Shown here: piece by piece, positions 12,284 through 48,949 of the stretch
How positions within the stretch are numbered: the first letter of the stretch is position 1
Layout: every line of letters begins with the position of its first letter
DNA from: Squalus acanthias
Lineage: Eukaryota
DNA length: 64,000 bases
NCBI GenBank assembly: GCA_030390025.1
Contig: CM059432.1
Location: forward strand, 99,326,001-99,390,000
Direction: 5' to 3'
Translations under genes and position numbers: made by a program
The notes under the pieces: model-generated
Told to the model about the DNA's origin: nothing
Database searches by the model: none
What the model saw: the letters and a program-made list of their open reading frames with translations, nothing else

Positions 12284-12845
12284 CACTCCTCTCAGCACAA
12301 TGGTGGTAGGTCTTTCCAGCACCAGAGTCAACGCTGCAATGAGAAGGGTGTGGCTGGCTAGCAATATGGATCCGCCCCTTTAAGAACTGGATGGCACCAG
12401 TCTGTCTGGGTTCCATTGGTAACTGACATCGACTGAGCTTCAGTAACGTTTGAGGTAGCGCCTCGCTCCCCGACATTCGTGCCTTAAGAGAGGTGTGTAG
12501 CGCCTGATTTAGCTCTCAAATCACCTCCAGGGGCGATAGAGGCGAATTTTGCAGTCGGAGGCAATAACTAGCGCCGGGCGCTAAACTTTGCACCCGGTCG
12601 ATATTAGCGCGTCTTCAGCATTTGTCTGAGTCTTCACCCTAAGATGGCCGACACACAACTGTTTTCAGGCTGCTATGCTTTACAACTCGCTGCTGGGACA
12701 TGTACAACAGTGTAAGTTGACTATTCTTTTCCGTGAGAAGTGCTTCACCTTTAAGAGCTCAAGGAAGATCAAGACTCATCACTTGGGTGGTCATGCACAT
12801 GAATCTGCTTACTGCCATTCCACTTTATAGTGTGTTAGAAACCAA

Positions 12846-14752: not shown

Positions 14753-15880
14753 CAAAAGATTGACCCAGTTGCTCGGCACAATAGACTTTAGATTTTTTTC
14801 ATAATTCTTAATTTAACACATATAAACCCACAGTGTTTCTACAAACATTTTCAGTCTTTTATGGAGATAATCCTTTTCTGTGATATCATTTGAATTGTAT
14901 TACTTTTTATGACAATCTATGAATTGATGGATCCACTCCTGATCGGTCCTGAGTGCACAGGGATGGCTGCTTAATCTTAAATTCATGGAATTGATCCTGA
15001 ATTGACATGGAAATTGCTGGAAAATGGAAATTTGTTTTTAAGCGTGGTTTATTAAAAATAAAATTTGCAGTGACAGTTTTTCAATACTGCATGAGGTACT
15101 GGAGATGAACCTGTGCCTCTCCTCTCGCAGAGGGTCAATGCCTGCAGGATAGAAAAGGAGGGGAGAAAATTGCATGGCAAAATGAATCGTAAACCCGTAA
15201 CAAAAGCAAAAGGTCTGCAGTCAATGCATTTTATTTGAATTAAATCTGTAACAATTTATCAAGCTTCTGCCAGTCAGAGCTCTGATACAAACAGCAATAA
15301 TGACACTTTACCCCTAAGGATGCACCACTGGAAATCTTATTTTAGTGCTGCATCAGATTATATTGTACACTTAAGCAGTATGCTGATTCTTGTAAATTTA
15401 AACCTTTGCTCCTTAATAATGTTTCTCCCCCATCCAATTTCCTTTTCTTTACCGCCCCCCCCACCCCTCCTGACTCACGTTGTCGTACAGTTCAACAGGT
15501 ATCTTATGCAAGTGGCCATTCTTAGGGGGAAAAATTCGGTATCGCCCATTTTGGGGCGCTAATATTGGCCGGGCGCAAAAATTATCACCCGACGCAAATT
15601 ATCGCCGGCGACCGGGAAATTCGTCTCCATCGCCCCTGGAGGTGATTGGAGCGCTAAATCAAGCATTACACACCTCTCTTAGGGCGCTAACATCGTGGAA
15701 CGAGGCGCTACCTCAGTGCACTACTCAAGCTCAGGCGATGTCAATTACCTCGTACTCAGACAGACTGGCGCCTTCCAGTTCTTAAAGGGGAGGGTCCATC
15801 TTGCTGCACAGCCTCACCCTGCTCATTGCAGCGTTTGACCTGGGCTTGCAAGGCGGTGTAAATCTGCAGCTAAGATTATC

Positions 15881-17000
15881 ATGGCTACTCAGAGGCCCAG
15901 GGAGAGAGCTCGCTGGTTTAGCGACCAGGCATTGGTGGCTCTGGTTGGCGCTGTGGAACGCCAACGGGCAGTGCTGCTCCCAGAGACTGGCAGGAGGCCA
16001 TTGCCCCGGGAGTTCACAAGGGTGTAGAGGGAGGTTGCCCATTACGTATCGTCCAGGAGCCTGGTCCAAAGGACTCATACGCAGTGCCGCAGGAAGTTCA
16101 ACGACCTCACTCTGGTGGTCAGGGTGAGTAGATGCTTGAAAAACCTCTAAAGCCCATCATCTCAACTTCACTCTGTGCAGACGGTGTAAATTCCCAAAAC
16201 CACAACATTCACCCAACAACCATGGCCATCTACTAATTGTCACATCCACATCCCACACCTTGCAGACATTAACGGCTATTCAACTACAGTAGGCATATCT
16301 GCCAAACACATGGCTGCACACTCACTCACACGCTGTCCTTTTTCTTGCAGGCCAAGCTTTCACATAAGAGGAGGGAGCAACAATGCACGGGAGGAGGACA
16401 GGCGGAGCTGCACCCCCTCACACAGCTGGAGGAGCGAGTTCACATATTCATCGCCAGTCATGTCGTGGGTGCTGTGGCCGTTGGAGAGGTCGACCTCTCT
16501 GAGGACAGCAATGGTATGTTCATCATTTCTCTCTCCTCTCTCATATCACTTCCCCCTCACAGCACCAGCCTTTCCTACTTTCCATCAAACAATACTGTCT
16601 CCATTCCTTGCTCCCTTCCTGTCCCCCTGCCCTCACGTTAAAGCCACTCTTGTACCTTCCTGCTTTCAGATAATGAGCTACCATCTGACCAGTCTGTCCC
16701 TCAGCCTCCCAGTGGCAGCGACACGGGAGAGGGGAGGAACACGAAGTCGACGCCTCACCGCCTGCGTCTCTGAAGGGCGAGACATCCGATACTGGGGCCA
16801 TGCGGTCACTGGAGGGGAACAGGGGATTTGGATCTCAAGTGGGTGAAGCTCCGGGACCCATCAGGTTGCAGCAATGCCATGGGGGAAGGGAAGCTCGGGG
16901 GCCATTTCCCCGGAGAGTGAGTGCGCGCACGAGTTCTGCTGCACAGGACTCGGATGAGGACCTTGATATTGCGGTGATGAATACTCAGGCGATGAGTATG
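15881..17000 (+). pseudogene. Harbinger Myb/SANT-like gene (exons 15881-16123, 16351-16513, 16670-~17000), 3' part deleted
   Basis: MATQRPRERARWFSDQALVALVGAVE...; donors GTGAGT and GTATGT, acceptors TTGCAG and TTTCAG. TAG in exon 1 and a frameshift in exon 3; the region homologous to 10469-11158 is absent. Confidence 0.85.
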
Positions 17001-17266
17001 AGTTGGATGTGTATGTTAATATATTGTTCACTGTTAAGACTTATCGCGATGTGGTAAGAACCAGTTTGGTATGTGAATGACTTGTTGTGTTTGTTTGTTA
17101 TTGGTTGTGCTTAATAAGACACAGTTGTTCAGAAAAATATTTTTTTTTATTGAAACGTTACAACTTTGCTCATTTTACACATTAGTGCTTTGCCTGGTAA
17201 TAGGGGCTGCGGGATGGCTGTAATGATGTGCTTCTTCATCCCAAAAGCCATCTTCTCTGTCGTTCA

Positions 17267-18437
17267 TCAGAAGCGGTGTCTTATGAGGCGTTCACGATCG
17301 GCCCGTGCAGAAGCAACATTGAGCGCCTCCCTCCCACGTTGTTGCTGCTCCTCCTCCTCTTCATCCTCCTCCACCACCTCCTGCTCCTCCTCTCCCTCGT
17401 CCTCCTCCTGAGGTGGTCCACCAGTCCCTGGTGGCAATGGCTGGATCCTCAGAATTGCGAGGTTGTGAAGCATGCAGCACACAACAATGAAAGCCGAAAC
17501 TCGATTGGGGGAAGTACTGCAAGGCTTCTCCAGAGTGGTCAAGACACCGGAACCATTGCTTCAGCACGCCGATCGTCTGTTCAATGAGGTTCCTAGTGGC
17601 GTTATGGCTCTCATTGTATGCGAGCTCAGCAGGAGTGTTGGGGTTACGGAGCGGTGTCATCAACCAGGTGCAGAGTGGATAACCCTTGTCCCCGAGGAGC
17701 CAGCCACGAGCTTGATGTGGTGGTTGGAACAGGTCTGGGACACCAGTCTGGCGAAAGATGAATGCATCGTGGCTGCTGCCAGGATAGCGGGCATTGACGG
17801 CGAGGATGCGTTGTATGTGGTTGCAAACCAACTGGATGTTGAGAGAGTGGAAGGCTTTGCGGTTGTGGAAAACCTCTACATTTTCATGAGGAGCCCGCAA
17901 TGACACGTGTGTGCAGTCAATGGCGCCCTGAACCATGGGGAAGCCCGCTATCCTAGTGAAGCCACATGCGCGTTTACGCTGTTTGTCTCGGGTCATGGGG
18001 AATGAGATGTACTCCCTTCTCCTTTTGTAGAGAGCATTTGTGACCTCCCGGATGCAACAATGGATGGCGAACTGGGAGATATTCGCAATATCCCCTGTTG
18101 AATCCGGGAAGGAGCTGCTGACGTAGAAATTGAGAGCCACCATCACCTTCACTGCCACCGACAGAGACGTCCTGATCCTGAGCTGAGACTCAAGCTCTGG
18201 CTGTCGGAGGTGGCAGAGCTCAGTGACCATCTCCTTGCTGAAGCGCAGCCTTCTAAAACACTGCTCCTCAGACAGATGGATATATGAGAATTGCTCCCGG
18301 AATACCCTGGAGGGTAAGGTCTCCTGTGCAGAGCCCTGTTGGCCCTCCTCCCTCTGGCCATGTTTTCCAATCTCTCTCTCCGCTGCCTCCGAACGGTGAA
18401 GCTGGAGGACGACGCCCCGTGCTAGTACAGCCCCCAT
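17267..18437 (-). pseudogene. HARBI1-like DDE transposase (frameshifted)
   Basis: ORFs 17361-18527 and 17267-17542 give GAIDCTH, YPGSSHDA, LLGDKGY, IEQTIGVLKQWFRCL and CCMLHNLA, plus an acidic tail. Confidence 0.92.
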
Positions 18438-20321
18438 TAAATCTTCTAAATGTGGTAGTAATAAAGCTGACAGAAATGGGAACCTGAAAAGTCTTGCTGA
18501 GGAACAAAACTCCTTGTAGGACAGCATTAAATGTCTCCAGATGTCTCTCTCACTCTCTCAACCTGTGTATGCAGAATATTTTGCCAACAGGAAAAAGCAG
18601 TAAGTGTACACCTTTAAATAGAGCTCCCCAGCTCCCAGCCGACTGCAAAACGTTCTCCTCTACCTGTCGTTCCTAGCGGCAGGTGCTGAGGCAGGGGCCG
18701 AGAATCAATTTCCGGTCCGGGGCGCTACCGGGGCGATGCGCGCTTCGATTATGTCACGATCTCTGGGTGCAGCAGATCATGGCAGTAATGTTTAGCACCA
18801 TCGTTAACCGCCAGGTCAATTTCGCGGGCGGCGCTAAAATCGCTGCGCTCAGGCGGTAAGTCGTTGGCGACCCCCGGAGGCGCTAACGGGAGGCACTAAC
18901 CAACCAAATTTTTCCCCCTTAATATCTAAACCTAGATAATGAGGAGGCTAGTGAAACATGGTCATCTCCTCCCATCCCAATTCTGAACACATCCTATGTT
19001 CTTACACATGCACTTTCCAATGTTAATAAAGAGCCGGGGCCCTGGCCAGTTTTTCTCTCCCTAGCCCAGGGGCATTCATGTCAATTGTAGCACATATAAA
19101 CCTGGAAATTACTGTTGTCATAAACCATTACACCATTGATAATTGGGGAAGAAGTGACAGAAAAATCAAGAGTAGGTTTTACAAATGAATGCTCCTGGAA
19201 CAGGGGGCCCAGATATTTATGAACAGAAAATCATGTGGAGCTCACTGACTGTGAACCAGTGAATTCTCAATATGTGATCCCAGGGCACAAAATCGTGCCA
19301 GGAGCATAAATCTACTTTCTATTCTTATTAATTGCCAGTTAATGAGGTAGTGAACCATATTGTTGACCTTGTATTTTGCGTGTGTGATACATTCTTTATA
19401 CTCATAGAGAGTAGGTGTTGGGAGCAGAGGAATCATCAGTTGCAGCGGGGAGTCCTGTGCTGTGTTCTGTTCTTTAAATCACTCCGGGGAACTCTGCAGC
19501 ATTATTTTGCTGATATCACTAGAGAATTCTCACTATCCTCTGTTGCTGACATCATTGGGAAGTCCTGCAGGATCAGCTGTTAGTGACAGAAAGTTGGACC
19601 GCAGGCAGTACTCAATGGACATTGCATTCGAGCTCCTCTAGCACTGGCCTTAGTGGAAGAAAATGAACAGGAGCAGGAATAGGCATGGACTGCCAGAGAA
19701 GTTAGATAGCACCAATATCATACTACCTGGACCTGCTGCTATGATACCCAGTTACAGCTAGTTGTGATAAAGGTGAGGAGCAGTGCCTTCTAAGGCTATA
19801 GCTTAGCAGGGACACAATGACTGAGCTGTGCTATCTGCCACAGGAAGACTCTAGCCATTGTTTGTCATCTGCACAGTACTGCTAGGATCAGTCAAGGTCA
19901 CCATGACTCTCAATTTCTATTCATTTGGCTACTTCTAGGTTTGCACTGGAAACATCTGCAATGTTTTTCAGTCTGCTACCCATGGATGTACCAAGGAAGT
20001 GACTGAAGTTTTATTTAGCAGGGCCAATGACTTAATTACTTTTGACTTTGACCAACAATAGGGCAATACAATACCATCCCACCACTGACTTTTCATGAGT
20101 ACAGGGGTTATTGAGTAACCCATGTAAGCATTCAGGCCTCTGTTCATAATTCAGTGGTCTTTGTGAACAGAAAGGGGTTCTACTATCTGAATGCTCAGCT
20201 GGTCTGTGGCCAGTGACCAGTTCTGCAGCACTCTGACAATGCATTTATTTTGAGACAATCATCTATGACACCATTAGTGTTAGAGGAAATTACAGTGCAA
20301 GGCTGTCTCCTAGGAACAGAA

Positions 20322-21640
20322 GCATAGTGGTTATTTTATTGGACTAGTAATCCAGAGGCCTGAACTAATAATCCAGAGACTCTGGGCTGGATTTTACCAG
20401 CCCTGAGGAGACAGGTTTGGAGGCGGGACAGCTGGGAAAATGGGAAAAATTGGGAGCGGGTCCCAACCCCACTCCCAACCCACCTCCGAACCATCTTCCC
20501 GGGAGGCGGGTCCCCGACTCGCACATGGACCCATCTCCTTGCGGCGGGAAGGGGATTAGAGCCAATCAACTGCCTGTTAACAGGTAGCTAACAGGCAGCT
20601 AAGAGGCTTTTCACCATTTTACGCCTGCCTGCTGATGCAGGCTTTCCGATGTCAGGGAACCCTGCCAGGGTCAGCGAGGGGAGCTGTGGGTTTGCTGCAG
20701 TGTAAGTGTGCAAATGACAGCTGCAGAGGTAGTGTGATGGGTGCAATGGTGCACAGGTAAGTATAACAGGTGAGAGAATGTAGTGAGAAATATTTTTATT
20801 ATGTTTATATGTTTCTGCAGGTGATAAGATTTGATGTTTATGGGAAGCCTCATCTGATCGGGAGAATTGACAGATGACTTCTGCAATCTCACATGCAGCT
20901 GCCATCTGTTTTCTCCTAAGGAGAGAGTCATTGGTGAGCCTGGGAGCAAGGGCTCACCTTTGGACAGTGATTGTCAGTGTTTGACAGCACCTCAATGCTG
21001 TCAAACACTGACAATTCATCTGTCAAAAAATTATGTTGCCGGTCACTTTAACAAAACCAGCAGATGAAGGTCATGCACTGACGTCATCTGACACCGGCTT
21101 TCCCTTAATTAGCCGGCAAGCCTGCAAGGTGGGCTTAACAAGGCCAATCAGGGGAAAATAGCGTCAAGTCATCAGACGTCACTGGGGGCGGGACTAGAAC
21201 CCGGAAACCAGCAGCACCGCCCCAACGCGCCTCCTCAGGTAAGATCCCGGCCTCTGAGTTCAAATCCCACCATGGCAGCTAGGGAATTTAAATTCAGTTA
21301 AATAAATCTGGAATTAAAAAGCTAGCATCAGTAATGGTGACCAGGAAACTACCGGATTGTTGTAAAAACCCATCTGGTTCACTAATGTCCTTTAGGGAAG
21401 GAAAGCTGCCATCCTTACCCAGTCTGGCCTATATATGACTCCAGACCCACAGCAATGTGGTTGACTCTTAACCAACCTCTGAAATGGCCTAGCAAGCCAC
21501 TCAGTTGTATCGAACCGCTATGACAAAGTCACCACAAGGACTACAGCGGTTCAAGGAGGCAGCTCACCACGGGAAATGAGGGCAATAAATGCCGGCCTTG
21601 CCAGCGATGCCCACATCCCGTGAACGAATAAATTAAAAAA
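20322..21640 (+). mobile_element. tRNA-headed SINE or bipartite non-autonomous derivative of the Zenon-like LINE, split by a MITE at 20384-21252
   Basis: A-box-like GCATAGTGG and B box GAGTTCAAATCC. The 5' ~330 bp match the 5' end of the LINEs at 28001-31030 and 45511-48807; the 3' tail GGACTACAGCGGTTCAAG...GGGCAATAAATGCCGGCCTTGCCAGCGATGCCCACATCCC matches the LINE 3' end. Confidence 0.85.
20384..21252. mobile_element. Harbinger non-autonomous element/MITE
   Basis: TIRs GGGCTGGATTTTACC / GGTAAGATCCCGGCC with TSD TCT; right part resembles 14480-14650. Confidence 0.85.
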
Positions 21641-22717
21641 GACCAAGGCAACCCTCTTCAGTGCTGACTAATGCCAATCATAGACAGAAGCAAAACAGAG
21701 ATACAATGAAATCCTTAAAGTCATTTGGATTATTATTAAACATATACCATTGTCAACTTGAAGCAGCCCTTCTGATGTCTGCACAGATCATTGGACAATT
21801 TATAGTGCACCCCATCACATCTGCATGCTCCATAATTTTGTATATAAAGAGGCCTAAGCATGGAGACTAAAGAGGAGAATGAAAAAATAGCTTGGAAGAC
21901 TGGTGCACCATCTAAGATACATTCCACTAAGTGCCTGAGCTGCCCCTTTAAAGAACCCTATTATCCTCACAATCCACAGAAACTGGCTCATCACATTCAT
22001 TAACACTGTTGTCAGCATTTCTTCTGCTTCGGTCATTGCTATAGTGGTGTCATGCTATAGTGATATACATAATTACAAAGACATTCACAGCAGAATGCAC
22101 AAGTATAAAAATTATAAAAGAAATTCTGTGATATATGATGGCAGTGTACTTTGCCCATTGCTTCTTGTGCTGTATTTTAGATGTGTGACACCTAACCTCG
22201 ACTATTTGTAAGTAGTTGCCTTGTGAAAAGAATAAGTATGTTTGTTCACTGCTGGATTTCGCTGACAGCCTGTTGGGTTTTGTTAGGTCTCATTGGGTTT
22301 GAATTGATAGGGCTTTCCATGTGTCTTAGCCATGTCCGAGACTGTAGTGGCTAACTAGTCTTGGATACTTTATGCTATAGCTCCCATGCCTGATGCGGTC
22401 GGCAGACACTTTTGGAAGGGAATGGCCATCTATCCTTTTATGTATGTGCCTTCTCTTCCTGAGTCCTTGTGAAAAGTTTTGAGCTCCTGATCCATCAAAC
22501 TGGCAGTCAGTAATGCATAAATCTACAGCATTCAATAATTAACTAGTTTTGCCTTCCCAATGCTATTTCGGGTAATTTTTGGCTCATAATTACAGTTCTC
22601 AGCTGATTTAGAGGATTTAATGCTGCTCTCTTATCATTGGCTAGCTTACTATATGGGAGAGGAGTCCAATAGTTTTACCCACAGACCAAAAGCAGCAATA
22701 TTATGGGTAAATATCAT

Positions 22718-23030
22718 TCGACAGAACCTCCCAACCCATGACCTCCACCGCCTAGAAGGACAAGGGCAGAAGGTGCATGGGAAGACCATCACCTCCAAGT
22801 TTCCCTCCAAGTCACACACCATCCTGACTTAGACATATATCGGTGTTCCTTCCTTGTCACTGGGTCAAAATCCTGGAACTCCCCCAACAGCACTGTGGGA
22901 GTACCTTCATCACATGGACTGCAGCGGCTCAAGAAGAAGGCTCACCATCACCTTCTCAAGGGCAGCTAGGGATGGGCAATATATGCTGGCCTTGCTAAGG
23001 ACACCCATATCTCAAGAATTAATTTAAATT
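22718..23030 (+). mobile_element. 3' fragment of the Zenon-like CR1 LINE
   Basis: Matches the reverse complement of 28001-28285 and 45511-45800 (CTAGAAGGACAAGGGCAG...CCTTCTCAAGGGCA...GGGATGGGCAAT). Confidence 0.85.
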
Positions 23031-25526: not shown

Positions 25527-27304
25527 ACATAGAAACATAGAAGATAGGAGCAGGAGTAGGCCATTCGGCCCCTCGAGCCTGTTCTGCCATTTAATGAGAT
25601 CATGGTTGATCATCCAAATTCAGTACCCTGTCCCTGCTTTCTCCCCATATCCCTTGATCCCTTTAGCCTTAAGAAATATATCTAACTCCTTCTTGAATAT
25701 ATTTAATGAATTGGCCTCAACTGCCTTCTGTGGTAGAAAATTCCACAGGTTCACCACTCTCTGGGTGAAGAAATTCCTCCTCATCTCAGTCCTAAATGGC
25801 TCACCCTTTATCCTTAGACTGTGACCCCTGGTTCTGGACTCCCCCGCCATCGGGAACATCCTTCCTGCATCTAGTCTGTCTAGTCCTGTTAGAATTTTAT
25901 AAGTTTCAATGAGATCCCCTCTCATTCTTCTAAACTCTAGCGAATATAAGCCTAATCGACCCAATCTCTCTTCATATGTCATTCCTGCCAACCCAGGTAT
26001 CAGTCTGGTGAATCTTCGTTGCACTCCCTCCATGGCAAGAACATCCTTCCTCAGATAAGGCGACCAAAACTGCACACAATACTCAAGGTGTGGTCTCACC
26101 AAGGCCCTGTACAACTGCAGCAAGACATCCTTGCTCCTGTACTCAAAGCCTCTCGCTATGAAGGCCAACATACCATTTGCCTTCTTAACCGCCTGCTGCA
26201 CCTGCATGCTTACCTTCAGCGACTGGTGCACAAGGACACCCAGGTCTTGTTGCACTTCCCCTTTTCCCAATCTATTGCCGTTCAGATAATAATCTGTCTT
26301 CCTGTTTATGCCACCAAAGTGGATAACCTCGCATTTATCCACATTATACTGCATCTGCCGTGCATCTGCCCAATCACCCAACCTGTCCAAATCATACTGG
26401 AGTTTCTCTGCATCCTCCTCACAGCACACACACCCACCCAGTTTTGTGTCGTCTGCAAACTTGGAGATATTACATCTAGTTCCCTCGTCTAGATCATTAA
26501 TATATATTGTGAATAGCTGGGGTCCTAGCACCGATCCCTGCGGTACCCCACTAGTCACTGCCTGCCACTCAGAAAAAGACTCGTTTATTCCAACTCTTTG
26601 CTTCCTGTCTGCCAACCAGTTCTCTATCCAAGTCAGTACCTTACCCCCAATCCCATGTGCTTTAACTTTGCACGCTAATCTCTTATGCAGGACCTTATCG
26701 AAAGCCTTCTGAAAGTCCAAATACACCACATCCACTGGTTCTCCCTTATCTATTCTACCAGTTACATCCTCAAAAAATTCCAGTAGATTAGTCAAGCATG
26801 ATTTACCTTTTGTAAATCCATGTTGACTTTGTCCGATCCTGTCACTGTTTTCCAAGTGCTCTGCAATTACATCTTTTATAATGGACTCTAGCATTTTCCC
26901 CACTACCGATGTCAGGCTTACCGATCTATAATTCCCCGTTTTCTCTCTACCACCTTTTTTAAATATTGTGGTTACATTAGCTACCCTCCAATCCATGGGA
27001 ACTGTTTGAGAGTCTATAGAATTTTGGAAGATGACCAGCAATGCATCTACTATTTCTAGGGCCACTTCCTTAAGTGCCCTAGGATGTAGATTATCAGGCC
27101 CTGGGGATTTATCGGCCTTCAATCCCATAAATTTCCCTAAAACCATTTCCCTACAAATACTGATTTCATTCAATTCCTCCCTCTCATTAGACCCTATGTT
27201 CCCCTGACATCTCTGGAAGGTTATTTGTGTCCTCCTTTGTGAAGACAGAACCAAAGTATGTATTTAATTGGTCAGCCATTTCTTTGTTCCCCATTATAAA
27301 TTCT
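25527..27304 (-). mobile_element. CR1 LINE, 5'-truncated, apparently young
   Basis: Octamer tail (ACATAGAA)2, the CR1 3' UTR and an uninterrupted RT ORF. Confidence 0.95.
25620..27254 (-). CDS. CR1 ORF2 reverse transcriptase C-terminal portion (open frame; endonuclease domain missing)
   Basis: 544-aa ORF with [39 protein letters not shown] and [11 protein letters not shown]. Confidence 0.85.
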   Translation of the reverse strand: MVLSSQRRTQITFQRCQGNIGSNEREELNEISICREMVLGKFMGLKADKSPGPDNLHPRALKEVALEIVDALLVIFQNSIDSQTVPMDWRVANVTTIFKKGGREKTGNYRSVSLTSVVGKMLESIIKDVIAEHLENSDRIGQSQHGFTKGKSCLTNLLEFFEDVTGRIDKGEPVDVVYLDFQKAFDKVLHKRLACKVKAHGIGGKVLTWIENWLADRKQRVGINESFSEWQAVTSGVPQGSVLGPQLFTIYINDLDEGTRCNISKFADDTKLGGCVCCEEDAEKLQYDLDRLGDWADARQMQYNVDKCEVIHFGGINRKTDYYLNGNRLGKGEVQQDLGVLVHQSLKVSMQVQQAVKKANGMLAFIARGFEYRSKDVLLQLYRALVRPHLEYCVQFWSPYLRKDVLAMEGVQRRFTRLIPGLAGMTYEERLGRLGLYSLEFRRMRGDLIETYKILTGLDRLDAGRMFPMAGESRTRGHSLRIKGEPFRTEMRRNFFTQRVVNLWNFLPQKAVEANSLNIFKKELDIFLKAKGIKGYGEKAGTGY

Positions 27305-28000: not shown

Positions 28001-31000
28001 TTTTTTTTAAATTCGTTCCTGAGATGTGGGCGTTACTGGTAAGGCTGGCATTTATTGCCCATCCCTAATTGCCCTTGAGAAGGTGGTGGTAAGCTGCCTT
28101 CTTGAACCGCTGCAGTCCGTGTGGTGAAGGTACTCCCATAGCACTGTTATGGAGGGATTGCCAGGATTTTGAACTAGCGATGATGAAAGAACGGCGATAT
28201 ATTTCCAAGTCAGGATGGTGTGTGACTTGGAGGGGAACTTGCAGGTGATGGTGTTTCCATGCACCTGCTGCCCTTGTCCTTCTAGACTTGTCACTCCTGA
28301 CTTGTGCCTTGTAGATGGTGGAAAGGCTTTGAGGAGTCAGGAGGTGAGACATTCACCGCAGAATACCCAGCCTCTGACCTGCTCTTGTGACCACATTATT
28401 TATGTGGCTGGTCCAGTTAAGTTTCTGGTCAATGGTGACCCCCAGGATATTGATTGGGGGGGATTCGACGATGGTAATGCCGTTGAATGTCAAGGGGCGG
28501 TGGTTAGACTCTCGCTTGTTGGCAATAGTCATTGCCTGGCACTTGTGTGGCGTGAATGTTACTTGCCAATTATCAGCCCAAGCCTGAATGTCAGCCAAGT
28601 CTTGCTGCTTGCGAGCATGGACTGCTTCATTATCTGAGGAGTCACGAGTGGAACTGAACACTGTACAATCATCAGCGGACATCCCAACTTCTGACCTTAT
28701 GATGGAGGGAAGGTCATTGATGAAGCAGCTGAAGATGGTTGGGCCTAGGACACTGCCCTGAGGAACTCCTGCAGCGATGTCCTGGGAATTAGATGATTGA
28801 CCTCCAAAACCACAACCATCTTCCTTTGTGCTAGGTATGACTTCAGCCAGTGAAGAGTTTTCCCCCTGATTCCCATTGACTTCAATTTTACTAGGGCTTC
28901 TTGATGCCACACTCGGTCAAATGCTGCCTTGATATCAAGGGCAGTCACTCTCACCTCACCTCTGGAATTCAGCTCCTTTGTCCATGTTTGGACCAAGGCT
29001 GTAATGAGGTCTGGAGCTGAGTGGTTCTGCCAGAACCCAAACTGGGCATCAGTGAGCAGGTTATTGGTGAGTAAGTGCCGCTTGATAGCACTGTCAACGA
29101 CACCTTCCATCACTTTGCTGATGATTGAGAGTCGACTGATGGGGTGGTAATTGGCCAGATTGGATTTGTCCTGCTTTTTGTGGACAGGACATACCTGGGC
29201 AGTTTTCCACATTGTCGGGTAGATGCCAGTATTGTAGCTGTACTGGAACAGCTTGGCCAGAGGCGTGGATAGTTCTGGAGCACAAGTCTTCAACACGATA
29301 GCCGGGATGTTGTCGGGGCCCATAGCCTTTGCTGTGTCCAGTGCGCTCAGCAGCTGCTTGGTATCACGTGGAGTGAATCGAATTGGCTGAATACTGGCTT
29401 CTGTGATGGTGGGGATCTCAGGAGGAGGCCAATATGGATCATCCACTCGGCACTTCTGGCTGAAGATGGTTGCAAACACTTCAGCCTTGTCTTTTGCACT
29501 CACATGCTGGGCTCCACCATCATTGAGAATGGGGATATTCATGGAGTCTCTTCCTCCCGTTAGTTGTTTAATGGTCCACCACCATTCACGACTGGATGTG
29601 ACAGGACTGCAGAGCTTTGATCTGATCCGTTGATTGTGGGATTGCTTAGCTTTGTCTATAGCATACTGCTTCCGCTGTTTAGCATGCATGTAGTCCTGTG
29701 TTGCATTTCCCCAGGCTTGGCACCTCATTTTTAGGTACGCCTGGTGCTGCTCCAGGCATGCTCTTCTGCACTCCTCATTGAACCAGGGTTGGTCCCCTGG
29801 CTTGATGTTAATTGTAGAGTGAGGGATATGCCAGGTCATGAGGTTGCAGATTGTGGTGGAATACAATTCTGCTGCTGCTGATGGCCCACAGCGCCTCATG
29901 GATGCCCAGTTTTGAGCTGCTAGATCTGTTCTGAATCTAACCCAATTAGCATGGTGGTAGTGCCACACAACACGATGGAGGGTGTCCTCAGTGTAAATAC
30001 AGGACTTCGTCTCCACAAGAACTGGGCTGTGGTCACTACTACAAATGCTGTCATGACAGATGCATCTGCGACAGGTAGATTGGTGAGGACGTGGTCAAGT
30101 AGGTTTTTCCCTCACGTTGGTTCTCTCACCACCTGCCGCAGGCCCAGTCTGGCAGCTATATCCTTCAGGACTCGGCTAGCTCGGTCAGTAGTGGTGCTAC
30201 CAAGCCACATTGAAGTCCCCCACCCAGAGTACATTCTGTGCCCTTGCTACCCTCAGTGCTTATTCCAAGTGGTGTTCAACTTGGAGGAGTACTGATTTAT
30301 CAGCTGAGGGAGGGCAGTAAGTGGTAATCAGTAGGAGTTTTCCTTGCCCATGCTTGACCTGACGCCATACGACTTCATGGGGTCCACAGTCAATGTTGAA
30401 GACTCCCAGGCCCATTCCCTCCTGACTGTATACCACTGTGCCACCATCTCTGGTGGTTCTGTCCTGCCGGTGGGACAGGACATAAGCAGGGATTGTAATG
30501 GAGGAGTCTGGGACATCGGCTGAAAGGTACAATTCTGTGAGTATGACTGTCAGTCTTGATTAGTCTGTGGGACAGCTCTCCCAATTTTGGCACAAGTTCC
30601 CAGATGTTAGTGAGGAGGACTTTGCAGGCCGTTGTCATATCTGAAGCCGGTGCCGAGGTCGATGCCAGGTGGTCTGTCCTGTTTTATTCTTATTATTGCT
30701 TTTCGTAGAGGTTTGTTACAACTCTGTGCCTTGCTAGGCTATTTCAGAGGGCAGTTAAGAGTCAACCACATTGCTGTGGGTCTGGAGTCATATATAGGAC
30801 AGCAGATTTCCTTCTCTAAAGGACATTAGTGAACCAGATGGGCTTTTACAACAATCCGGTAGTTTCATGGTCACCATTACTGATACTAGCTTTTTATTCC
30901 AGATTTGTTTAATTAAGTGATTTTAAATTCCCCAGCTGCTGTGGTGGGATTTAAACTCACGTCTCTGGATCATTAGTCCAGGCCTTTGGATTTACTAGTC

Positions 31001-31030
31001 CAGTAACATAACCACTATGCTACCATTCCC
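28001..31030 (-). mobile_element. Zenon-like CR1-group LINE, near full length, single EN-RT ORF (disrupted), tRNA-like 5' head
   Basis: EN motifs (NIWELVPKLGEL, DRTTRDGG) and RT motifs ([28 protein letters not shown]); A-rich tail; ~230-bp deletion near 28288 relative to copy 2. Confidence 0.9.
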
Positions 31031-32627
31031 TTTAATTGAGTTGGACATCCATTTAAGAATGCTGTAACAGCAATTTTATAATCAGATGCTTAGAGATATA
31101 ATTCTGGGGTGACTAGGTCAAAAATTATTTCCACTCGTTAATGGGAAGCATGTGACCTCCATTTGACTTTTCCACAAAAGCGTGGCTGACATCAGAACTC
31201 AGAAAGGTTGATAATGTGAAGAAAACTGCTGCGCTCCGAGCAACAGAGACCCATATTCTTGGGCATAAAGGCTCGATACCTACTCCTCCCCCGTTGCGAT
31301 CAGCAGAGGGAAATGCAGTTGGAAAGTATCTACTGGAGTTTGGAAACATCTACCACACTGGGAGCCTGTGCACTCCCTATGGGCAAAACTCATGCTGGCA
31401 TCATCCTTGTAAATCTTCCCTGTACCCTCTCCAGTGCCTCAATATCCTTTTTATAATATGACGACCAGAACAGTTTCAGTACTCCAAGTGTGGTCTAACC
31501 AAGGTTTGATACAAGTTGTAGCATAACTTCTCTACTTTTCAATTCTTTCCCTCTAGAAATAAACCCTAGTGCTTGGTTTGCTTTGTTTATTGCTTTATTA
31601 ACCTCTGTCGCTACTTTTAGTGATTTATGTATTTGTACTCCGTGATCTCTTTGCTCCCCAACCCAATTAGATTCTTATTTTTCAAGTAATATGTGGCCTC
31701 CTTATTTTTCTTTCCAAAATGTAATACCTCACAGTTATCTATGCTGAAATTCATTTGCCTATTTTATGTACATTCTGCAAGTTTATTAATGTCTTCTTGT
31801 AATTTGTTGCAGTCCTCCTCAGTATTGACAAACTCCCCCAATTTGGTGTCATCCACAAATTTAGAAATTGTGTTTTTGATTACAAAGTCTAAATCATTAT
31901 TATAAATTGTGAACAACAGTGGTCCAAGCACTGATCCTTGTGGAGCACCACTACCCACCTTCTGCCATTGTGAATAGCTACCCTTTACCCCTACTCTCTG
32001 GTTTCTGTCTTGCAGCCAGCTAGCTATCCATTCTGCTACTTGGCCCCTGACTCCGCATTCTCTGACTATACTCAATTGTATATTATGTGGTACCTGATCA
32101 AAGGCCTTTTGGAAATCTAGATATATTGAGGGAAAAATTCAATACCTTAGAACCTCCCATTTGCACCATCTGCTGGCATTAACGGGGCGCGAGAACATTA
32201 TCGCTGGGGCGGGGCCAATCCAATGCCACACGTCAAATCCCGCCAGCCCCCGCAGCGTCGCCGCTAACAGTTATCGCCAGGAGCCTCAACGCCAGGTTCA
32301 TGATGTCAGTGAGTGTGCAACACTCATTGACTGCTCAATCTGCAAAATTGATTGTCGCCACCTACCTTAGCACCTAGAGTAAACAGCGACAGGGAGAGCT
32401 GGCGTGAAACACCAGGAAGCCGGCTCCAGGGACGGTATTTAAAGGGATCGTCAGTAATGAGTCACAGCTATAGGTTAGTGGAGTTTCAGTGCTTTCTTGT
32501 CAGTTTCACATAGTCCAACAGTCTCATTCCATAATTTCAAGGTTATTTAGCATCAGGAGTGTTGTGGCACTAAAAAGTAGCTACATTTATTATTAAAGGA
32601 ATCAAACTGTTACATTTGGTTACATTT

Positions 32628-33700
32628 ATGGACGCTGTACTGGCAGTCAACCTTGCCCTCCAGGATCTATGGCAGAGGCAGCGATAAAGACTGGAAAATA
32701 TGCCCAGAGGGAGGAGGAGGGCCATCAGGGCACTCAGCAGGAGGCCTTACCCTCCGAGGGTATTTCGAGACCACTTCTCATACCTCCAATTAAGCGAGGA
32801 GCAGTATATTAGAAGGCTCCGCTTCACCAAGGAGGTGGTCATAGAACCCTGCCACCTCCTGCAACCAGACCTCCAGCCAGGATAGCAGGCTTCCTCATGG
32901 CACAGGGCGCCATTGACTGCACCCATGTGACTTTGCGGGCACCGCATAACAATCTTGAGGTCTTCCATAACCACAAAGGCTACCACTCACTTAATGTCCA
33001 GTTGGTGTGTGACCACAGACAGCGAATCCTCAATGTCAATGCCCGCTATCCTGTTAGCAGCCACAATGTCTTCATCCTGTGCCAGAATGGTGTGCCAACA
33101 ATCTTCCAGCCACCACGTAAAGCTCGCGGCTGGCTGGTCAGAGACAAGGGCTATCCGGTCTCCACCTGGCTCATGACTCCCCTCCGCAACCCCAACAAAT
33201 CTGCCCAGCACTCATATAATGAGAGCCATGCTGCCACCAGGAACATCATAGAGCAGACCATCGGTCCGCTGAAGCAATGGTTCCGCTGCCTCGACCACTC
33301 GGGAGGAGCCCTCCAGTACTCGGTTGAGCGGGTGTCACATTTCGTGATGGTCTGCTGCATGCTCCACAACTTGGCCATCATGAGGGCCCAGCCCTTGCCA
33401 CCAGGGATTGCAGCACCACCTCAAGAGGAGGAAGAGGGAGAGGAGAAGGAGGACGAGAAAGAAGAGGAAGATGAGGAGGACAAAGAGGAGGAGGAAGAAC
33501 AGGAGCGAGGGAGGAGTCAGCCACTCAATCGGCCTTCCGGAAGGGTGGTCCATGACCGCTTCATCAGACTACAGTTCGAATTAATTAAGCCCCATATCCC
33601 CGTTGCTCACCACATCCCCATCATTTCATGCCTGTCACAGGCCATATCACAGCGCAAAGCTGAAATGAGACACACCACAAAAGAATCTAAAATGAATTAA
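32628..33700 (+). pseudogene. HARBI1-like transposase with an internal deletion
   Basis: RRPYPPRVFR...LQPDLQP is joined at ~32877 directly to IAGF..QGAIDCTH; ORF 32897-33700 holds the remaining DDE-domain motifs. Confidence 0.88.
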
Positions 33701-33744
33701 TAAATTTATCAAAAATCAGTGAACACATATTTACAACAAAAATA

Positions 33745-35840
33745 TTAACTATTCACCCTTGTGCAAACCCTTACAGTGTCTTTGCCTACTCCAGTGTTCC
33801 TATGAAGTTTTGGCCCAGTGACTGCAGCAGGGTTGGTGGAAGGCTGCTTAGAGTCTGTGCGGGAGACTTCAGATGGCCTTGCTGGATGCCCTCGACCAGC
33901 TCTGGGCCTGGATGGCCTGGCTATAGACTGCACCACCTCAGTATCAGCGGCAACCGTCTGGGCTGGCTGGATGACAGGCAGCAACAAGGGCAATGGCGGA
34001 GTGTCAGTGCTGGGAGCAGGAATGCTGTCATCCTGCGAGAGGACAGAAGGTTCCTGCTCCACTGACCCACTGCCACTCCCCGGGGGAAGCACCTTAGCAT
34101 CCCTAGCAATCTGTTGGAGGACAGGTTGCTGGCCTGCTGCGACACCATGAAAGCCCCGGTCGACGGTGGTAGGCCCAGCCACGCTGGCAGCAGTCAGAGC
34201 TTGCATGGCATCAAGCTGAGACTGCATGAGAGCAGTCTGAGATGGGATGCCACCAAGCATCGACTGCATTACAGCACTAAGACATTGCATCGCTTCCGCC
34301 TGTGCTACAATGGAAGCTTCCAGATTGCCCATCACACGCAGCATCAGGTCTGGGTCACCAAGGTCTCTCTGGGAGTCGATCATCCTTTGCAGACTGGAAA
34401 TGATGGGCTCCATGGTGTGCACAGAGCTCTGTGCAATGTTGGAGGCAGACTCCTCCATGCTCCTTACCATTGCCAAGAGGCTCTCAAGCACACTTGTCAT
34501 TGCACCTGTCGTTTCCGTGTGCATGCCCATCACCCTTCTTCTAAACGCCTCCCCATCGAGGTCCTCATCTGAGTCCTGTGCAGCAGAACTCACACGCAAA
34601 CTCGCCCTCCGGGGAGCTGGCCCCCAAGCTACCCTTTTCCCCTGGCCTTGCTGCAGCCCGCTCATCCCCCTGTGCAGATCCCGTTACTATACTAGCCTCT
34701 AAAGAGCACGTAGTGCCAGTATCTGAGCTGGTGTCTGCGGGTGAGACATGTAGTGATGCGGTGTGTTCTTCCTCCTCTTCTCCCGTCTCGCTCTCTACGG
34801 TGCCCTCATGGACAGGCTGCTCAGGTGCTTGCAGATTATCTGAAAGCATAAAGGCACGAGAGTCGGGTTAAGGTGAGGGGAGGGGGGCAGGAAGGGAGAA
34901 ATGCATGCATACAGCATGATTAGCTGGAAAGTGTGAAACGCTTGTGGGGTGAGGGGGAAGTGGAATGTGAGAAGAAGGAGTTGGGATGAACATACTGTTG
35001 TTGTCCCCAAGGGGATCAACGTCACCGGTGACCACAGCGCCCACCACCTGGCCGGCCATTAATCTGCAGCACTCTATAGGGCTAGAAATTTGGTATCGCC
35101 CCGGATGGGGCGCTAAATTTTAAAAAGTTGGAGAATTAGCGCCAGGCGCTAATCCTTCTGACCTCCCGCTAAATTGATTGTTAACGCTCCAAGAAAGAAC
35201 TGGAGCGCTAAATCAAGCACTAATCACCTAACTTAGGGTGCTACACAGAGAGCGAGGCGCTACCCGCAGAGCGATAACCAATTTCAGGTGCACTCCAATC
35301 GGGACTCATCATTCACACTGGCTCCTTCCAGTTCTTAAAGGAGAGTTTCATTCATTCAGCACAACATCATTCTCAACATTACTGGCTCTGAAGGCGACCT
35401 ACAAGCAATTCACCAGCTACACCTCTTATCCTCATGGCTGATCCCAGTCCCAGGGAGAGAGCTCGCCACATCAGCGACCAGGCATTGGTCACAGCAGTCA
35501 AAAGAAGGAGGGCAGTGCTGTTCCTGGCCACTGGCAGGAGGCCATTGCCCCAGGTCTTCAGGGCAATGTGGAGCGAAGTGGCACAGGGCGTCTCTCACCC
35601 TGATCATCCAAGTGAGGTTGTTAAGTTTCTTCTTGCACTGTATGTGGCTCCTGAGGACCACAGTGCTGCCCGAGTCGTGCTGCGCTACCTCCCTCCACCT
35701 GGTGCGGAAGACCTGCGACGAGGGCCTCCTGCCACTTGCCGGGTAGAGCACCGCCCTTCATCTCTCTATAGCGAACACCAATGCCTCCAAAGCTTGATTG
35801 CAGAATCTGCAGGCTCTCTCCCTGGGCATGGATCTGCCAT
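33745..35840 (-). pseudogene. Harbinger Myb/SANT-like gene (exon 1 35840-35599, partial exon 2 35078-34996, exon 3 34839-33745)
   Basis: WREVAQH...HIQCKKKLNNLTWMIR followed by donor GTGAGA; ORF 33745-34665 is homologous to 10469-11158. Confidence 0.8.
35079..35594 (+). mobile_element. Myb-side end of a second Harbinger inserted in opposite orientation, truncated
   Basis: TIR GGGCTAGAAATTTGGTATCGCC followed by Myb exon 1 from ATG 35434 (MADPSPRERARHISDQALV...WSEVAQ). Confidence 0.8.
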
Positions 35841-36184: not shown

Positions 36185-36687
36185 GCCATTCATAAGTCTC
36201 ACAGCATGGCTGAGAGACTTATGAATCTTACACCCCCCCAAAATAACAGCTAAACCTCAATTAAATTTAAAAAAAAACCCATCACATTAATAAAATAAGT
36301 ATAGTTAATTAAATTAACCATTTTAAATAAAAAATTAAATTTTTGAAAAAATTTAAAATCTTTTAAAAAGTTATAAAAATAAACTTACCTGTCTTTAAAG
36401 TCTATAAAAAAGATATACCTGTAAAAAAAAATTCAAAAAAATACTTAATTCACTACTTACCTTCTTAAAAGCGGGTCTTACTCCTACTTTTTACATTTCC
36501 AAAATCTTCAGTACTTACCTGCGCGTCCAAAGCATGAAGTGCACAGCGTGCGCGCAGCCTGTAGCGCGCACGCGATGCACTCCGGCCCCGCCCCCTTTTC
36601 GGAAGAGCAATTGCCGGTTTTCAGCGCATGCGCAGGGCATGCAGAAAACCGGCAATTGGAGTGGGAATACGCGAGAGTATGCAGTGA
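36185..36687. mobile_element. Truncated MITE, inverted copy of 58898-59640
   Basis: High reverse-complement identity with ~58930-59430. Confidence 0.85.
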
Positions 36688-40094: not shown

Positions 40095-41392
40095 GATGAG
40101 AGGCATCTTGGTTGTGTTTGACAGCACATCAGAAGAGGAAGACCATCACCATCCATGGCAGCGACGACATACTGTGGTGTGATCAGCACATGCACAGGAG
40201 AGATGTGCACAGGAGGAAGGTGCACAGGAGGGAGGTGCACAGGAGGGGCACTGAGGTCACAGAGGCACTACCAACATAAAAGATTTACAGACAGAAGCTA
40301 AGCTTCCTTGATCTCTCAGAAGAGCAGTGCTTCAGCAGGCTGAGGTTGTCACATCAGGTGGTGGCAGACATCTGCAGCCTTCTACAGGAAGACCTGCTCC
40401 CTGCTGGACCTGGTGGCTACGCATTACCAGTGGCTGTGAAAGTGACCACCGCCCTCAAGTTTTTCGCTTCCAGATCCTGCAAGGGCGCTGCCGGAGACAT
40501 ATCCAGGGTCTCCCAGTTGGCTGCACATAAATGCATAAGGTAGGTCACTGATGGATTGTGTGCCAGGGCCGACAATTATATAAGCTTCCCCTGTGATGAC
40601 AATAGCCAGAATGAGTGGGCAATTGGCTTCGCATCTCTGGCTGGATTCCCAGAAGAGGGATGACGATGAAAGGGGACATGGAAATGGGAACTCAAAGCAT
40701 TCCCACTTTTCACCCATTGCCCCCCCTTAGTCAGTACCCGACACGTAGCCTGCAATCAACTGCACACACGTGGCAATCCGAGCATCGCCACAGTTATCAG
40801 GAGTGTTTATAAACCACAAGGGATATTGGCCCAGCAATGCGCAGCTGATGTGCAACCACATGCAGGTTCATGCAGATCTGCGTCAGATTCCCTGGGAGCT
40901 GTCATGATGCCTTCATACTAAGGCAGTCCAACATTCCAGGCCTTTTTGTTCCATGAATCAGACTTAATGGTTGGCTCGTAGGATACAAGGGACATGCCCC
41001 TTCAAATGTAGCTCATGACACTGTGAGGAACCCCACCAATGAGGCGCAGAAGCATGACAACGAGAGCCACATGACCACTAATTGTGTTATCGAGCAAGCC
41101 ACCAGAATGTTGAAGGTGCCTAGATAGATCTGGAGGAGCCCTTCAGTACTCATCAGCAAGGGTGTCCAGAATGATAGTCGTGTGCTTCGTCCTGCACAAC
41201 AGCAGAGAGGATTGCAGGTGGAGGAGGATGAAGGGGCTCATTACTCATCTTCAGATGAGGAGAACATAGAGGAGGAGGAAGTACAGGAGGAGGAGGAGGA
41301 GGAATAAGATGCGGCACCCACTGCCAGACCAGATGCTTACATTGCTGCCCAGCATGTCAGGGATGCCCTAATATCTCGAAGGTTTACCTAGT
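40095..41392 (+). pseudogene. HARBI1-like transposase, decayed
   Basis: [54 protein letters not shown] and an acidic tail; multiple stops and frameshifts. Confidence 0.8.
40191..40248. repeat. 15-bp tandem repeat x4 within the transposase N-terminal region
   Basis: TGCACAGGAG units start at 40191, 40206, 40221 and 40236. Confidence 0.85.
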
Positions 41393-45510: not shown

Positions 45511-48500
45511 ATTTATTTTTTTATTCATTCTTTGGATGTGGGCGTCACTGGCAAGGCCAGCATTTATTGCCCATCTCTAATTGCCCTTGAGAAGGTGGTG
45601 GTGATCCGCCTTCTTGAACCACTGCAGTCCATGTGGTGAAGGTACTCCCATAGTGCTTTTAAGGAGGGAGTTCCAGGATGTAGACCCAGCGACGATGAAG
45701 GTACGGCGATTTATTCCCAAGTCAGGCTGGTGTGTGACTTGGAGGGGAACTTGCAGGTCATGGTGTTCCCATGTGCCTGCTGCCCTTGTCCTTCTAGGTG
45801 GTAGACATCATGGGTGGAGCTGCTGTTGAAGAAGCCTTGGCGAGTTGCTGCACTGTATTTGTAGATGGTACATACTGCAGCCATGGTGCGCCGGTGGTGG
45901 AGGGAGTGAATATTTAAGGTGATGGATGGGGTGCCAATCATGCGGGCTGCTTTGTCCTGGATGGTGTTGAGCTTCTTGAGTGTTGTTGGAGCTGCACTCA
46001 TCCAGGCAAGTGGAGAGTATTCCATCACACTCCTGACTTGTGCCTTGTAGATATTGGAAAGGCTTTGGGGAATGAGGAGGTGAGACACTCGCCGCAGAAT
46101 ACCCAGCCTCTGACCTGCTCTTGTAGCTACAGTCTTTATGTAGCTGGTCCAGTTAAGTATCTGGTCAATGGTGATGCCCAAGATGTTGATGGTGAGGGAT
46201 TTGGTGATGGTAAAACCGTTGAATGTCAAGGGGCAGTGGTTAGATTCTCTCTTGTTGGAGATAGTCATTTCCTGGCACTTGTGTGGCGCGAATGTTACCT
46301 GCCACTTATCAGCCCAAGCGTGAATGTCGAACAGTTGTTGCGACATGTGGGCATGGACTGCTTCATTATCTGAAGAGTTGCGAATGGAACTGAACACTGT
46401 GCAATCATCAGCAAACATCCCCACTTCTGACCTTATGATGGAGGGAAGGTCATTGATGAAGCAGCTGAAGATGGTTGGGCCTAGGACACTGCCCTGAGGA
46501 ACTCCTGCAGCGATGTCCTGGGAATTAGATGATTGACCTCCAAAACCACAACCATCTTCCTTTGTGCTAGGTATGACGTCAGCCAGTGAAGAGTTTTCCC
46601 CCTGATTCCCATTGACTTCAATTTTACTAGGGCTTCTTGATGCTACACTCGGTCAAATGCTGCCTTGATGTCAAGGGCAGTCACTCTCACCTAACCTCTG
46701 GAATTCAGCTCTTTTGTCCACGTTTGGACCAAGGCTGTAATGAGGTCTGGAGCCGAGTGGTCCTGGCGGAACCCAAACTGAACATCGGTGAGCAGGTTAT
46801 TGGTGAGTTAGTGCCGCTTGATAGCACTGTCGATGACACCTTCCATCACTTTGCTGCTGATTGAGAGTAGGCTGTTGGGGCGGTAATTGGCCGGATTGGA
46901 TTTGTCCTGTTTTTTGTGGACAAGACATACCTGGGCAGTTTTCCACATTGTTGGGTAGATGCCAGTGTTGCAGCTGTACTGGAACAGCTTGGCAAAGGCA
47001 TGCCTAGTTCTGGAGCACAAGTCTTCAGTACGACAGCCGGGATGTTGTCGGGGCCCATAGCCTTTGCTGTATCCAGTGGGCCCAGCCGTTTCTTGATATC
47101 ACGTGGAGTGAATCAAATTGGCTGAAGACTGGCTTCTGTGATGGTGGGGACCTCAGGAGGAGGGCAAGATGGATCATTCACTTGGCACTTCTGACTGAAG
47201 ATGGTTGCAAACGCTTCAGCCTTGTCTTTTGCATTTGTGTGCTGGGCTCTGGCATCATTGAAGAGGGGGATGTTCATGGAGCCTCTTCCTCCCGTTAGTT
47301 AACTTTCCACCACCATTCACGACTGGATGTGGCAGGATTACAGAGCTTTGATCTGATCCGTTGGTCGTGGGATCGCTTAGCTCAATATAGCATGCTGCTT
47401 CCACTGTTTAGCATGCATGTAGTCCTAAGTTGCAGCTTCCCCAGGTTGTCACCTCATTTTTAGGTACACCTGGTGCTGCTCCTGCCATGCCCTTCTACCC
47501 TCTTCATTGAATCAGGGTTAGTGCCCTGGCTTGTTGGTGATGGTAGATTGAGGGATATGCTGGGCCATGAGGTTACAGATTGTGGTGGAATACAGTTCTG
47601 CTGCTGCTGCTGCTGATGGCCCACAGCGCCTCATGGATGCCCAGTTTTGAGCTGCTAGATCTGTTCTGAATCTATCCCATTTAGCACGGTGGTAGTGCCA
47701 CACAACACGATGGGGGCGGGGGGTAGGGGGGTGGGGGTGTCCTCAGTGTGAAGATGGGACTTCATCTCCACAAGGATTATGTGGTGGTCACTGCTACCAA
47801 TACAGGCATAGATATCTGCAACTGGTAGATTGGTGACGACGAGGTCAAGTAATTTTTCCCTCGTGTTGGTTCTCTCACCACTTGCTGCAGTCCCAGTCTG
47901 CAGCTATGGCCTTCAGGACTCGGCCAGCTCGGTCAGTAGTGGTGCTACCGAGCCACTCTTGGTGATGGACATTGAAGTCTCCCACCCGCAGTACATTTTG
48001 TGCCCTTGCTACCCTCAGTGCTTCTTCCAAGTGGTGTTCAACATGGTGGAGTACTGATTCATCAGCTGAGGGACAGCGGTAGGTGGTAATCAGCAGAAGG
48101 TTTCCTTGCCTATGCTTGACCTGAAGCCATGAGACTTCATGGGGTCTGGAGTCAATGTTGAGGACTCCAGGGCCACTCCCTCCTGAGGTGTACCACTGTT
48201 CTGCTACCTTTGGTGGGTCTATCCTGCCGGTGGTATGGGACATACCCAGGGATGGTGATGGAGGATTCTGGGACATTGGCTGAAAGTTATGATTCTGTGA
48301 GTATGACTATGTCAGGCTGTTGCTTGACTAGTCTGTGGGACAGCTCTCCCTATTTTGGCACAAGTCCCCAGATATTAGCGAGGAGGACTTTACAGGGTCA
48401 ACTGGGCTTGATGTGCCTTTGTCGTGTCCGAAGCCAGTGCCTAGTTCAAATCCGGGCGGCCCGTCCAGTTTTATTCTTATTATTGTTTCTTATGGCATTT

Positions 48501-48807
48501 TGGTACGACTGAGTGCTTGCGAGGCCATTTCAGAGGGCAGTTAAGAGTCAATCACATTGCTGTGGGTCTGGAGTCATATCGGCCAGACCAGGTAAGGATG
48601 GCAGATTTCCTTCCCTAAAGGGCATTAGTGAACCAGATGGGTTTTTACAACAATCATCGTCACCATTACTAATACTAGCTTTTTAACTGAATTTAAATTC
48701 CCCAGCTGCCATGGTGGGATTTAAACTCACGTCTACCGGATCATTAATCATTAATCTAGGCCTCTGGATTACTATTCCAGTAACATAACCACTATGCTAC
48801 TGTGCCC
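45511..48807 (-). mobile_element. Zenon-like CR1-group LINE, copy 2, near full length with tRNA-like 5' head
   Basis: Colinear with 28001-31030; MFADDC, WQVTFAPHKCQ and VGDFNVHHQEWLGS; head at ~48700-48807. Adjoins a SacSINE tail remnant (45459-45510). Confidence 0.9.
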
Positions 48808-48949
48808 TCAGTGCTTCTTCCAAGTGGTCTTTTACATGGAGGAGTACTGATTCATCAGCTGATGGAGGGCACTAGGTGGTTGGAGGAATTTGAACTCATG
48901 TCTCTGGATCATTAGTCCAGGCCTCTGAATTACTAGTCCAGTAGCATCA

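Follow-up and report, generated by a model that had tools for sequence, protein, structure and literature searches.

The window, that is, the whole 64,000-nucleotide stretch of Squalus acanthias DNA analysed here, carries two near-full-length copies of one LINE, A and B, both on the reverse strand, and a SINE-like element that shares the two ends of the LINE (Table 1). We aligned A (31030-28001) with B (48806-45511) from end to end and counted 333 mismatches over 2,981 columns (11%); the flanks of the two copies bear no relation to each other. Both copies are built in the same order, with a head containing A and B boxes, a body of ~240 nt and a single endonuclease-reverse transcriptase (RT) frame. 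This frame begins, with KVLL, at offset 407 from the 5′ end in A and 415 in B, and gave Pfam matches to Exo_endo_phos_2 and RVT_1. The leader of ~400 nt holds short frames only in both copies, and no long ORF1 was found upstream of the endonuclease frame. The preliminary description had both copies starting at the same tRNA-like head and entering such a frame after ~400 bp without an ORF1, and the alignment, box and Pfam data bear it out on both points. The 3′ ends of A, B and the SINE are A-rich, and other copies in public contigs show longer A tracts there. We saw no convincing target-site duplication for A, B or the SINE.

Table 1. Features of the head-bearing LINE and its derivatives in the window
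Feature	Position	Strand	Details
LINE copy A, Zenon-type	28001..31030	-	near full length, decayed; ~265 bp missing at 28285/28292, near the 3′ end
tRNA-like head of A	30943..31030	-	A box 31022-31012, B-box-like 30956-30948; pattern scan, Rfam tRNA
Body common to LINE and SINE	30700..30942	-	not Deu; self-comparison, Deu sequences by eye
Endonuclease-RT frame of A	28065..30626	-	broken; ORF, Pfam and protein comparison
3′ tail of A	28001..28127	-	common to the SINE; A-rich tract at end
Near-identical A/B tract	28660..28959 (A), 46396-46695 (B)	-	one-base frameshift common to both; A/B alignment
LINE copy B	45511..48806	-	near full length, head same as A; A box 48799-48789, B-box-like 48726-48718
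Short frame in B	48328..48474	-	48 codons, out of frame over the endonuclease start; ATA at start; no Pfam match
Second head piece (68 nt) followed by endonuclease piece (76 nt)	48805..48947	-	internally deleted head-bearing copy directly upstream of B
SINE-like element	20313..21640	+	head 20313-20383 and from 21253, body to 21526, LINE tail 21529-21640
Nested inverted-repeat element	20384..21252	.	3-bp duplication; interrupts the SINE head, leaving the A box on one side and the B box on the other
5′-truncated 3′ fragment of the Zenon LINE	22717..23028	+	self-comparison

Using pattern scans, we located the A box, TAGCATAGTGG, at offset 7-8 in both A and B, and a B-box-like motif, GTTTAAATC, at offset 74-80, non-canonical in both copies; the SINE counterpart of the B box is GTTCAAATC. 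The Rfam tRNA model scored A at 21.4 bits (E 0.058) and B at 18.6 bits (E 0.4), neither of which reaches the gathering score of 29, and ARAGORN detected no tRNA gene in the heads of the window's copies. According to these results, the head is tRNA-like and is not a tRNA gene. Regarding the body, its folding energy was no better than that of shuffled sequences (z -0.83 and -1.43), structure tests on the body and on the tail gave zero compensatory pairs and weak z-scores, and Rfam returned no ribozyme or IRES family for it. Three decayed copies scanned for a 5′ HDV-like ribozyme, as carried by R2, RTE and Ingi LINEs, gave no ribozyme-family match with an E-value of 10 or less. The SINE body at 21360-21515 is predicted to fold, with an unremarkable folding energy, into a row of small hairpins, one of which carries a GCAA tetraloop. 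We rejected the Deu/SacSINE1 label for the body, which by eye has ~10 nt in common with the Deu of EbuSINE2 and SINE2-2_CM, the sequences compared in place of SacSINE1 itself. For the Meta (66 bp) and UCON3 central domains, motif searches in the supplements of PMC4824008 and PMC4758252 gave no match within a SINE body, and the body motif had no match in eight files of PMC11481361.

A and B differ at 11% of sites in the head and at 12% in the body; in the coding part, once a near-identical tract is excluded, the mismatch is 10-14%. Such equal divergence is as expected if the parts moved as one unit, and head and body are thus of the same age as the coding part. The excluded tract is 97% identical over 300 bp (8 differing sites), compared with 88% elsewhere (p 3.5e-9), and contains an identical run of 155 nt and a one-base RT frameshift present in both copies, at which other copies in public contigs differ. 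It is likely the product of gene conversion between copies lying 17.7 kb apart, or else an assembly artefact.

Other repeats are present in the window. These include three decayed DNA-transposon copies with DDE_Tnp_4 (Harbinger-like) transposase frames (8533-12610, 15556-18918 and 32672-35827), canonical CR1-type LINE fragments (25528-27263, 52487-54012 and 31393-32126), and repeat pairs at 13217-14422 / 49197-50393 (86% identity), 36186-36686 / 58932-59431 (92%) and 40648-40751 / 42576-42679 (98%).

The SINE-like element and internally deleted copies

The short element had been described as the first ~330 bp of the LINE joined directly to its last ~100 bp. This composition holds once an 869-bp insert is removed and fails for the contiguous stretch; besides, the element starts near 20313, not at 20322. 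Its head and body match the LINE with 10% mismatch and are followed by the last ~110 nt of the LINE, with 73-74% identity between this tail and those of A and B (128 columns). The element combines two traits of a tRNA-derived SINE (SINE2), a tRNA-related head with A and B boxes and a LINE-shared 3′ tail in a sequence repeated as a family, the second being documented by the tail identity and by body-to-tail joints in public contigs of all four runs, each with a different organism code. The 869-bp insert has imperfect terminal inverted repeats, parts of it match 14419-14659 and 50413-50528, and it is probably a Harbinger-type non-autonomous transposon. The head and endonuclease pieces directly upstream of B have the same orientation as B and are joined at a short shared motif.

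Among the joints listed from the public contigs, at least five different body-tail breakpoints were placed by the letters lying between the two sides. One joint reached a summed depth of ~7,000, and some may be single-copy deletions. The window adds two further deletion cases, the SINE's own junction and the copy at 48947-48805. With so many breakpoints, one old tail capture is less favoured than recurrent internal deletion of the LINE, the likely source of the SINE-like elements. Capture of a SINE head by the LINE and origin of the SINE by deletion had been put forward as alternatives; they need not exclude each other, and the most plausible sequence of events has both, in that the LINE would have gained its head by capture and SINE-like elements would then have been repeatedly deleted out of it.

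Family identity and distribution of the head

In an RT tree of 52 rows, copy A falls inside a 28-row clade (97/94) together with a protein of the lepidopteran Chilo suppressalis, and the window's canonical CR1 falls outside. The LINE shows the features by which a Zenon element (CR1 group) is recognised, namely a single ORF with APE endonuclease and RT and no ORF1, a poly-A tail, and an RT that groups apart from canonical CR1, in a tree that holds no named Zenon reference, so that the name rests on published consensi. Zenon elements without ORF1 and with a poly-A tail are reported from five elasmobranchs in the text and supplement portions available from Stuart et al. 2026 (PMC13343379), and, judging by sequence, our LINE is the elasmobranch Zenon family already described there. 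By eye, the 5′ ends in the window read almost as the starts of SquAca_Zenon-1 and -2. The closest protein pieces, 63-86% identical, came from gene models of Heptranchias, Pristiophorus and Heterodontus. Our searches returned no full-length shark protein of the family, and the best full-length relatives were 34-39% identical. In shark gene models, pieces of the LINE ORF occur in frame in anoctamin-7-like, LRRC32-like, storkhead-like, CWC25 and RGM proteins (P0017, P0022, P0027, P0103 and P0106), and may reflect annotation errors or exonisation. Six elasmobranch rows of the published supplement give 0-3 intact ORFs among 59-2,313 insertions. The LINE is an abundant, now decayed retrotransposon of sharks and rays.

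We then compared, by eye, the first 400 nt of the consensi in the PMC13343379 supplement. All seven elasmobranch consensi, from five species (four sharks and one ray), open with both boxes, A and B, together with the same body and LINE 5′ segment, and the head is found in none of the three others (two from hagfish, one from coelacanth). In these segments the A and B boxes are near-canonical across the elasmobranch species, with variable sequence separating the two boxes and a nearly invariant body. Since it is present in seven of seven, the head is almost certainly a feature of the family, constituting its 5′ end, and not the result of chance nesting. Given that the other Zenons lack it, the simplest reading is a single capture, which we infer to have taken place in the shark-ray ancestor. 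In a possibly-RNA run of another organism, contig rows with a common depth of 480.3 span the LINE start, the body and the head, and would belong to a single contig.

The LINE-start motif had zero matches in viral contigs and zero in metagenome contigs, and protein alignment against viral contigs gave no relative. ARAGORN found no tRNA in 49 of 80 related loci, a result that is uninformative since it also misses the shark heads, and Rfam found none in 16 of the 80, a weak test because a head like that of A lies near the cut-off at that search size. A-box patterns were absent from all nine full-ORF loci of the Zenon clade, with one lone B-box-like match, over the 134-400 nt visible upstream. The main text of PMC13343379 contains neither 'tRNA' nor 'polymerase III', and 'SINE' appears in it once, in a reference; the head, its partner SINE and the shortage of T-runs go unremarked there. 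In the literature searched, which lay outside Repbase, Dfam and subscription journals, we found no description of the head on this LINE. The architecture is real and family-wide on a recently described LINE family, whose head is unremarked in that literature.

T-runs, leader and transcription of the LINE

Pol III stops at four or more T in a row on the sense strand. Scanning for such runs, as the preliminary description had suggested, gave one in A and two in B (per ~3 kb). In order to contextualize these counts, we used 54 related ORFs, those of at least 600 aa among the 80 related loci, whose hosts differ from the shark. TTT observed/expected was 0.42 in A and 0.52 in B, the lowest value in the related ORFs being 0.54 (median 1.18). 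T-runs per kb were 0.3 and 0.6 in A and B and at least 1.19 in the related ORFs (median 6.9). As a same-host control, the CR1 fragments at 25528-27263 and 52487-54012 presented TTT observed/expected values of 1.12 and 1.22, with 2.6 and 3.9 T-runs per kb. One related ORF (L019:557-3079) is also T-run-poor (TTT observed/expected 0.54); it has no known head, and ARAGORN was negative on its 5′ end.

The T-run common to A and B lies inside the near-identical tract and is broken by an extra base in many other copies, and the second run of B is private to B, so the ancestor probably had no T-run in its 3.3 kb. By comparison, 13 A-runs are common to A and B. A count of zero, as deduced for the ancestor, would arise with P 0.06 or 0.006, according to the choice of null. 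The deficit gave p 0.024 in A and 0.10 in B against base shuffles, and was not significant against dinucleotide shuffles (A, 1 vs 2.8, p 0.22; B, 2 vs 2.9, p 0.42) or synonymous-codon shuffles (p 0.17-0.87). T content is 21%, and much of the T-run effect is due to low T; CpG observed/expected is 0.31-0.33, and CpG decay would add T, not remove it. By eye, in the first 400 nt, TTTT is present in none of the seven elasmobranch consensi and in all three from hagfish and coelacanth. The scarcity of T-runs fits Pol III transcription and, being borderline against shuffles, is suggestive and not decisive.

Regarding the translation start, an in-frame Met precedes the endonuclease motif by 11-56 codons in all nine non-shark full-ORF loci of the Zenon clade; copy B has none. 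The start of the short frame of B (ATA) lies 80 nt upstream of the endonuclease start and out of frame. At about this position, six of the seven elasmobranch consensi have an ATG (by eye, first 400 nt). The endonuclease start is visible in two of these six, the ATG being out of frame in the ray (74 nt) and in frame in the deleted SquAca_Zenon-2 (60 nt). Copy A also has ATA there, together with a copy-specific in-frame ATG beside a 19-nt deletion, and its 5′ leader holds nine upstream ATGs. No conserved slippery site between the short frame and the endonuclease frame was seen by eye in the first 400 nt of the consensi, and an in-frame start codon is not established for the LINE ORF.

Pol III RNAs are uncapped, which, like the non-canonical B box of A and B and the want of an established in-frame start, counts against Pol III transcription of the LINE. 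We propose that an A/B-box head, probably taken over from a SINE by the LINE of the shark-ray ancestor, would act as an internal Pol III promoter for the 3.3-kb RNA, and that Pol III would read through to the A-rich tail, with no TTTT to stop transcription. Translation of the uncapped LINE RNA would begin independently of a cap, or in some other unusual way, and its copying would proceed by the target-primed reverse transcription of other LINEs. Internal deletions that keep promoter and tail would repeatedly yield ready-made SINEs such as that at 20313-21640. We put at even odds that the captured tRNA-like head of this single-ORF Zenon LINE serves as the internal Pol III promoter for the whole RNA, and the chances are evenly balanced, too, that Pol III makes the RNA used for transposition. 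The complete scheme can be held only tentatively, its probability falling somewhat short of one half: an autonomous coding LINE with a 3.3-kb Pol III RNA, a captured tRNA promoter, purged T-run terminators, uncapped translation via the conserved 5′ body, and SINEs born by internal deletion across sharks and rays. The interpretation offered in the preliminary description is thus upheld in part, with Pol III initiation as its conditional component.

One could argue that the head is the family's real 5′ end and that the RNA is made by Pol II, the SINE piece being a Pol II promoter or a TFIIIC chromatin opener and the T shortage an ordinary LINE strand bias. LINEs are taken as Pol II transcribed (PMC5786205), a cap would solve the translation problem, and the T-run deficit fails two of the three shuffle tests. 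However, the element begins a few bases 5′ of the A box, which is the expected Pol III start, the CR1 in the window lacks the T-run deficit, and the nine upstream ATGs of the A leader are poorly suited to cap-dependent scanning. We regard Pol II transcription as the less likely explanation, although the strongest of the rivals.

The Pol III signals and the missing cap would also be reconciled if roles were split, with a Pol III RNA being copied and the protein coming from Pol II read-through of copies in host transcripts, that is, a giant SINE with the enzyme supplied in trans. Deleted, frameshifted head-bearing subfamilies have spread (SquAca_Zenon-2 and -3, in the published supplement), and element pieces are present in shark gene models. 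Against this speculative arrangement, LINE proteins usually act on the RNA that encodes them, and long survival in sharks and rays would need cis selection on the ORF; we consider it improbable. Still less credible is that the head-bearing form is a non-autonomous hitch-hiker subfamily of a true master with another 5′ end and a normal start codon. The in-frame Met of the non-shark loci, absent from B, and the near absence of intact ORFs in the elasmobranch rows would suit such a master, but the head is in all seven consensi of the five species, and no alternative 5′ end was seen among the loose contig ends listed. Finally, chance nesting of a SINE before a LINE followed by local duplication, to which the near-identical 300-bp tract of A and B and the abundance of both SINE and LINE might point, is refuted, since A and B have no flanking sequence in common and differ by 12% outside the tract, and since the head-LINE junction, which the preliminary description expected to differ between copies under chance nesting, is the same in A, B and the first 400 nt of all seven elasmobranch consensi, from five species.

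Significance and comparison with known systems

Textbooks separate LINEs, with coding RNAs made by Pol II, from SINEs, with non-coding RNAs made by Pol III. A SINE promoter and a LINE ORF in one element, kept across sharks and rays, blur this division. Two questions become testable. The first is whether translation and mobilisation of a natural multi-kilobase Pol III RNA are possible; the second, whether LINE 5′ UTRs outside RTE and Vingi can be the source of conserved SINE bodies or be formed by them. Internal deletion of a headed LINE would, in turn, give rise to new SINEs in one step. In genome annotation, the LINE head will be mistaken for a SINE and masked as such, and a single element will be recorded as two.

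Bov-B offers precedents for LINE ends derived from SINEs. Among cartilaginous fishes, SacSINE1 (Deu, L2-type tail) and HE1/HER1 (V-SINE) are tRNA-headed SINEs with a LINE-derived tail, as is the SINE in the window. The latter has in its body ~10 nt in common with the Deu of other SINEs and, unlike SacSINE1, a Zenon-derived tail. HE1, we assume, is also different from it.

The elasmobranch Zenon elements of CarCar, HypSab, RhiTyp, ScyCan and SquAca (PMC13343379, available portions) are the same family, with ~3.3 kb, no ORF1 and an A-rich tail. The bipartite RTE/Vingi SINEs Bov-tA, AfroSINE and CoeSINE4 (Kojima 2018, PMC5786205) share both ends with a LINE, like the SINE in the window, but in them the tRNA head was added after deletion and the LINE is headless, whereas in the shark Zenon the coding LINE itself bears the head. 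The same paper remarks in one sentence that RTE-1_DAn and relatives hold tRNA-like sequence, and lists only RTE, Ingi, Vingi and R2 as makers of both-end derivatives. According to the available part of PMC6740152, lepidopteran Zenon is a LINE of 3.1-3.7 kb that, like shark Zenon, repeatedly yields internally deleted derivatives with both 5′ and 3′ ends. Its SIDE Persaeus has no tRNA homology or Pol III promoter in that account, whereas the shark derivative is, in form, a tRNA-headed SINE.
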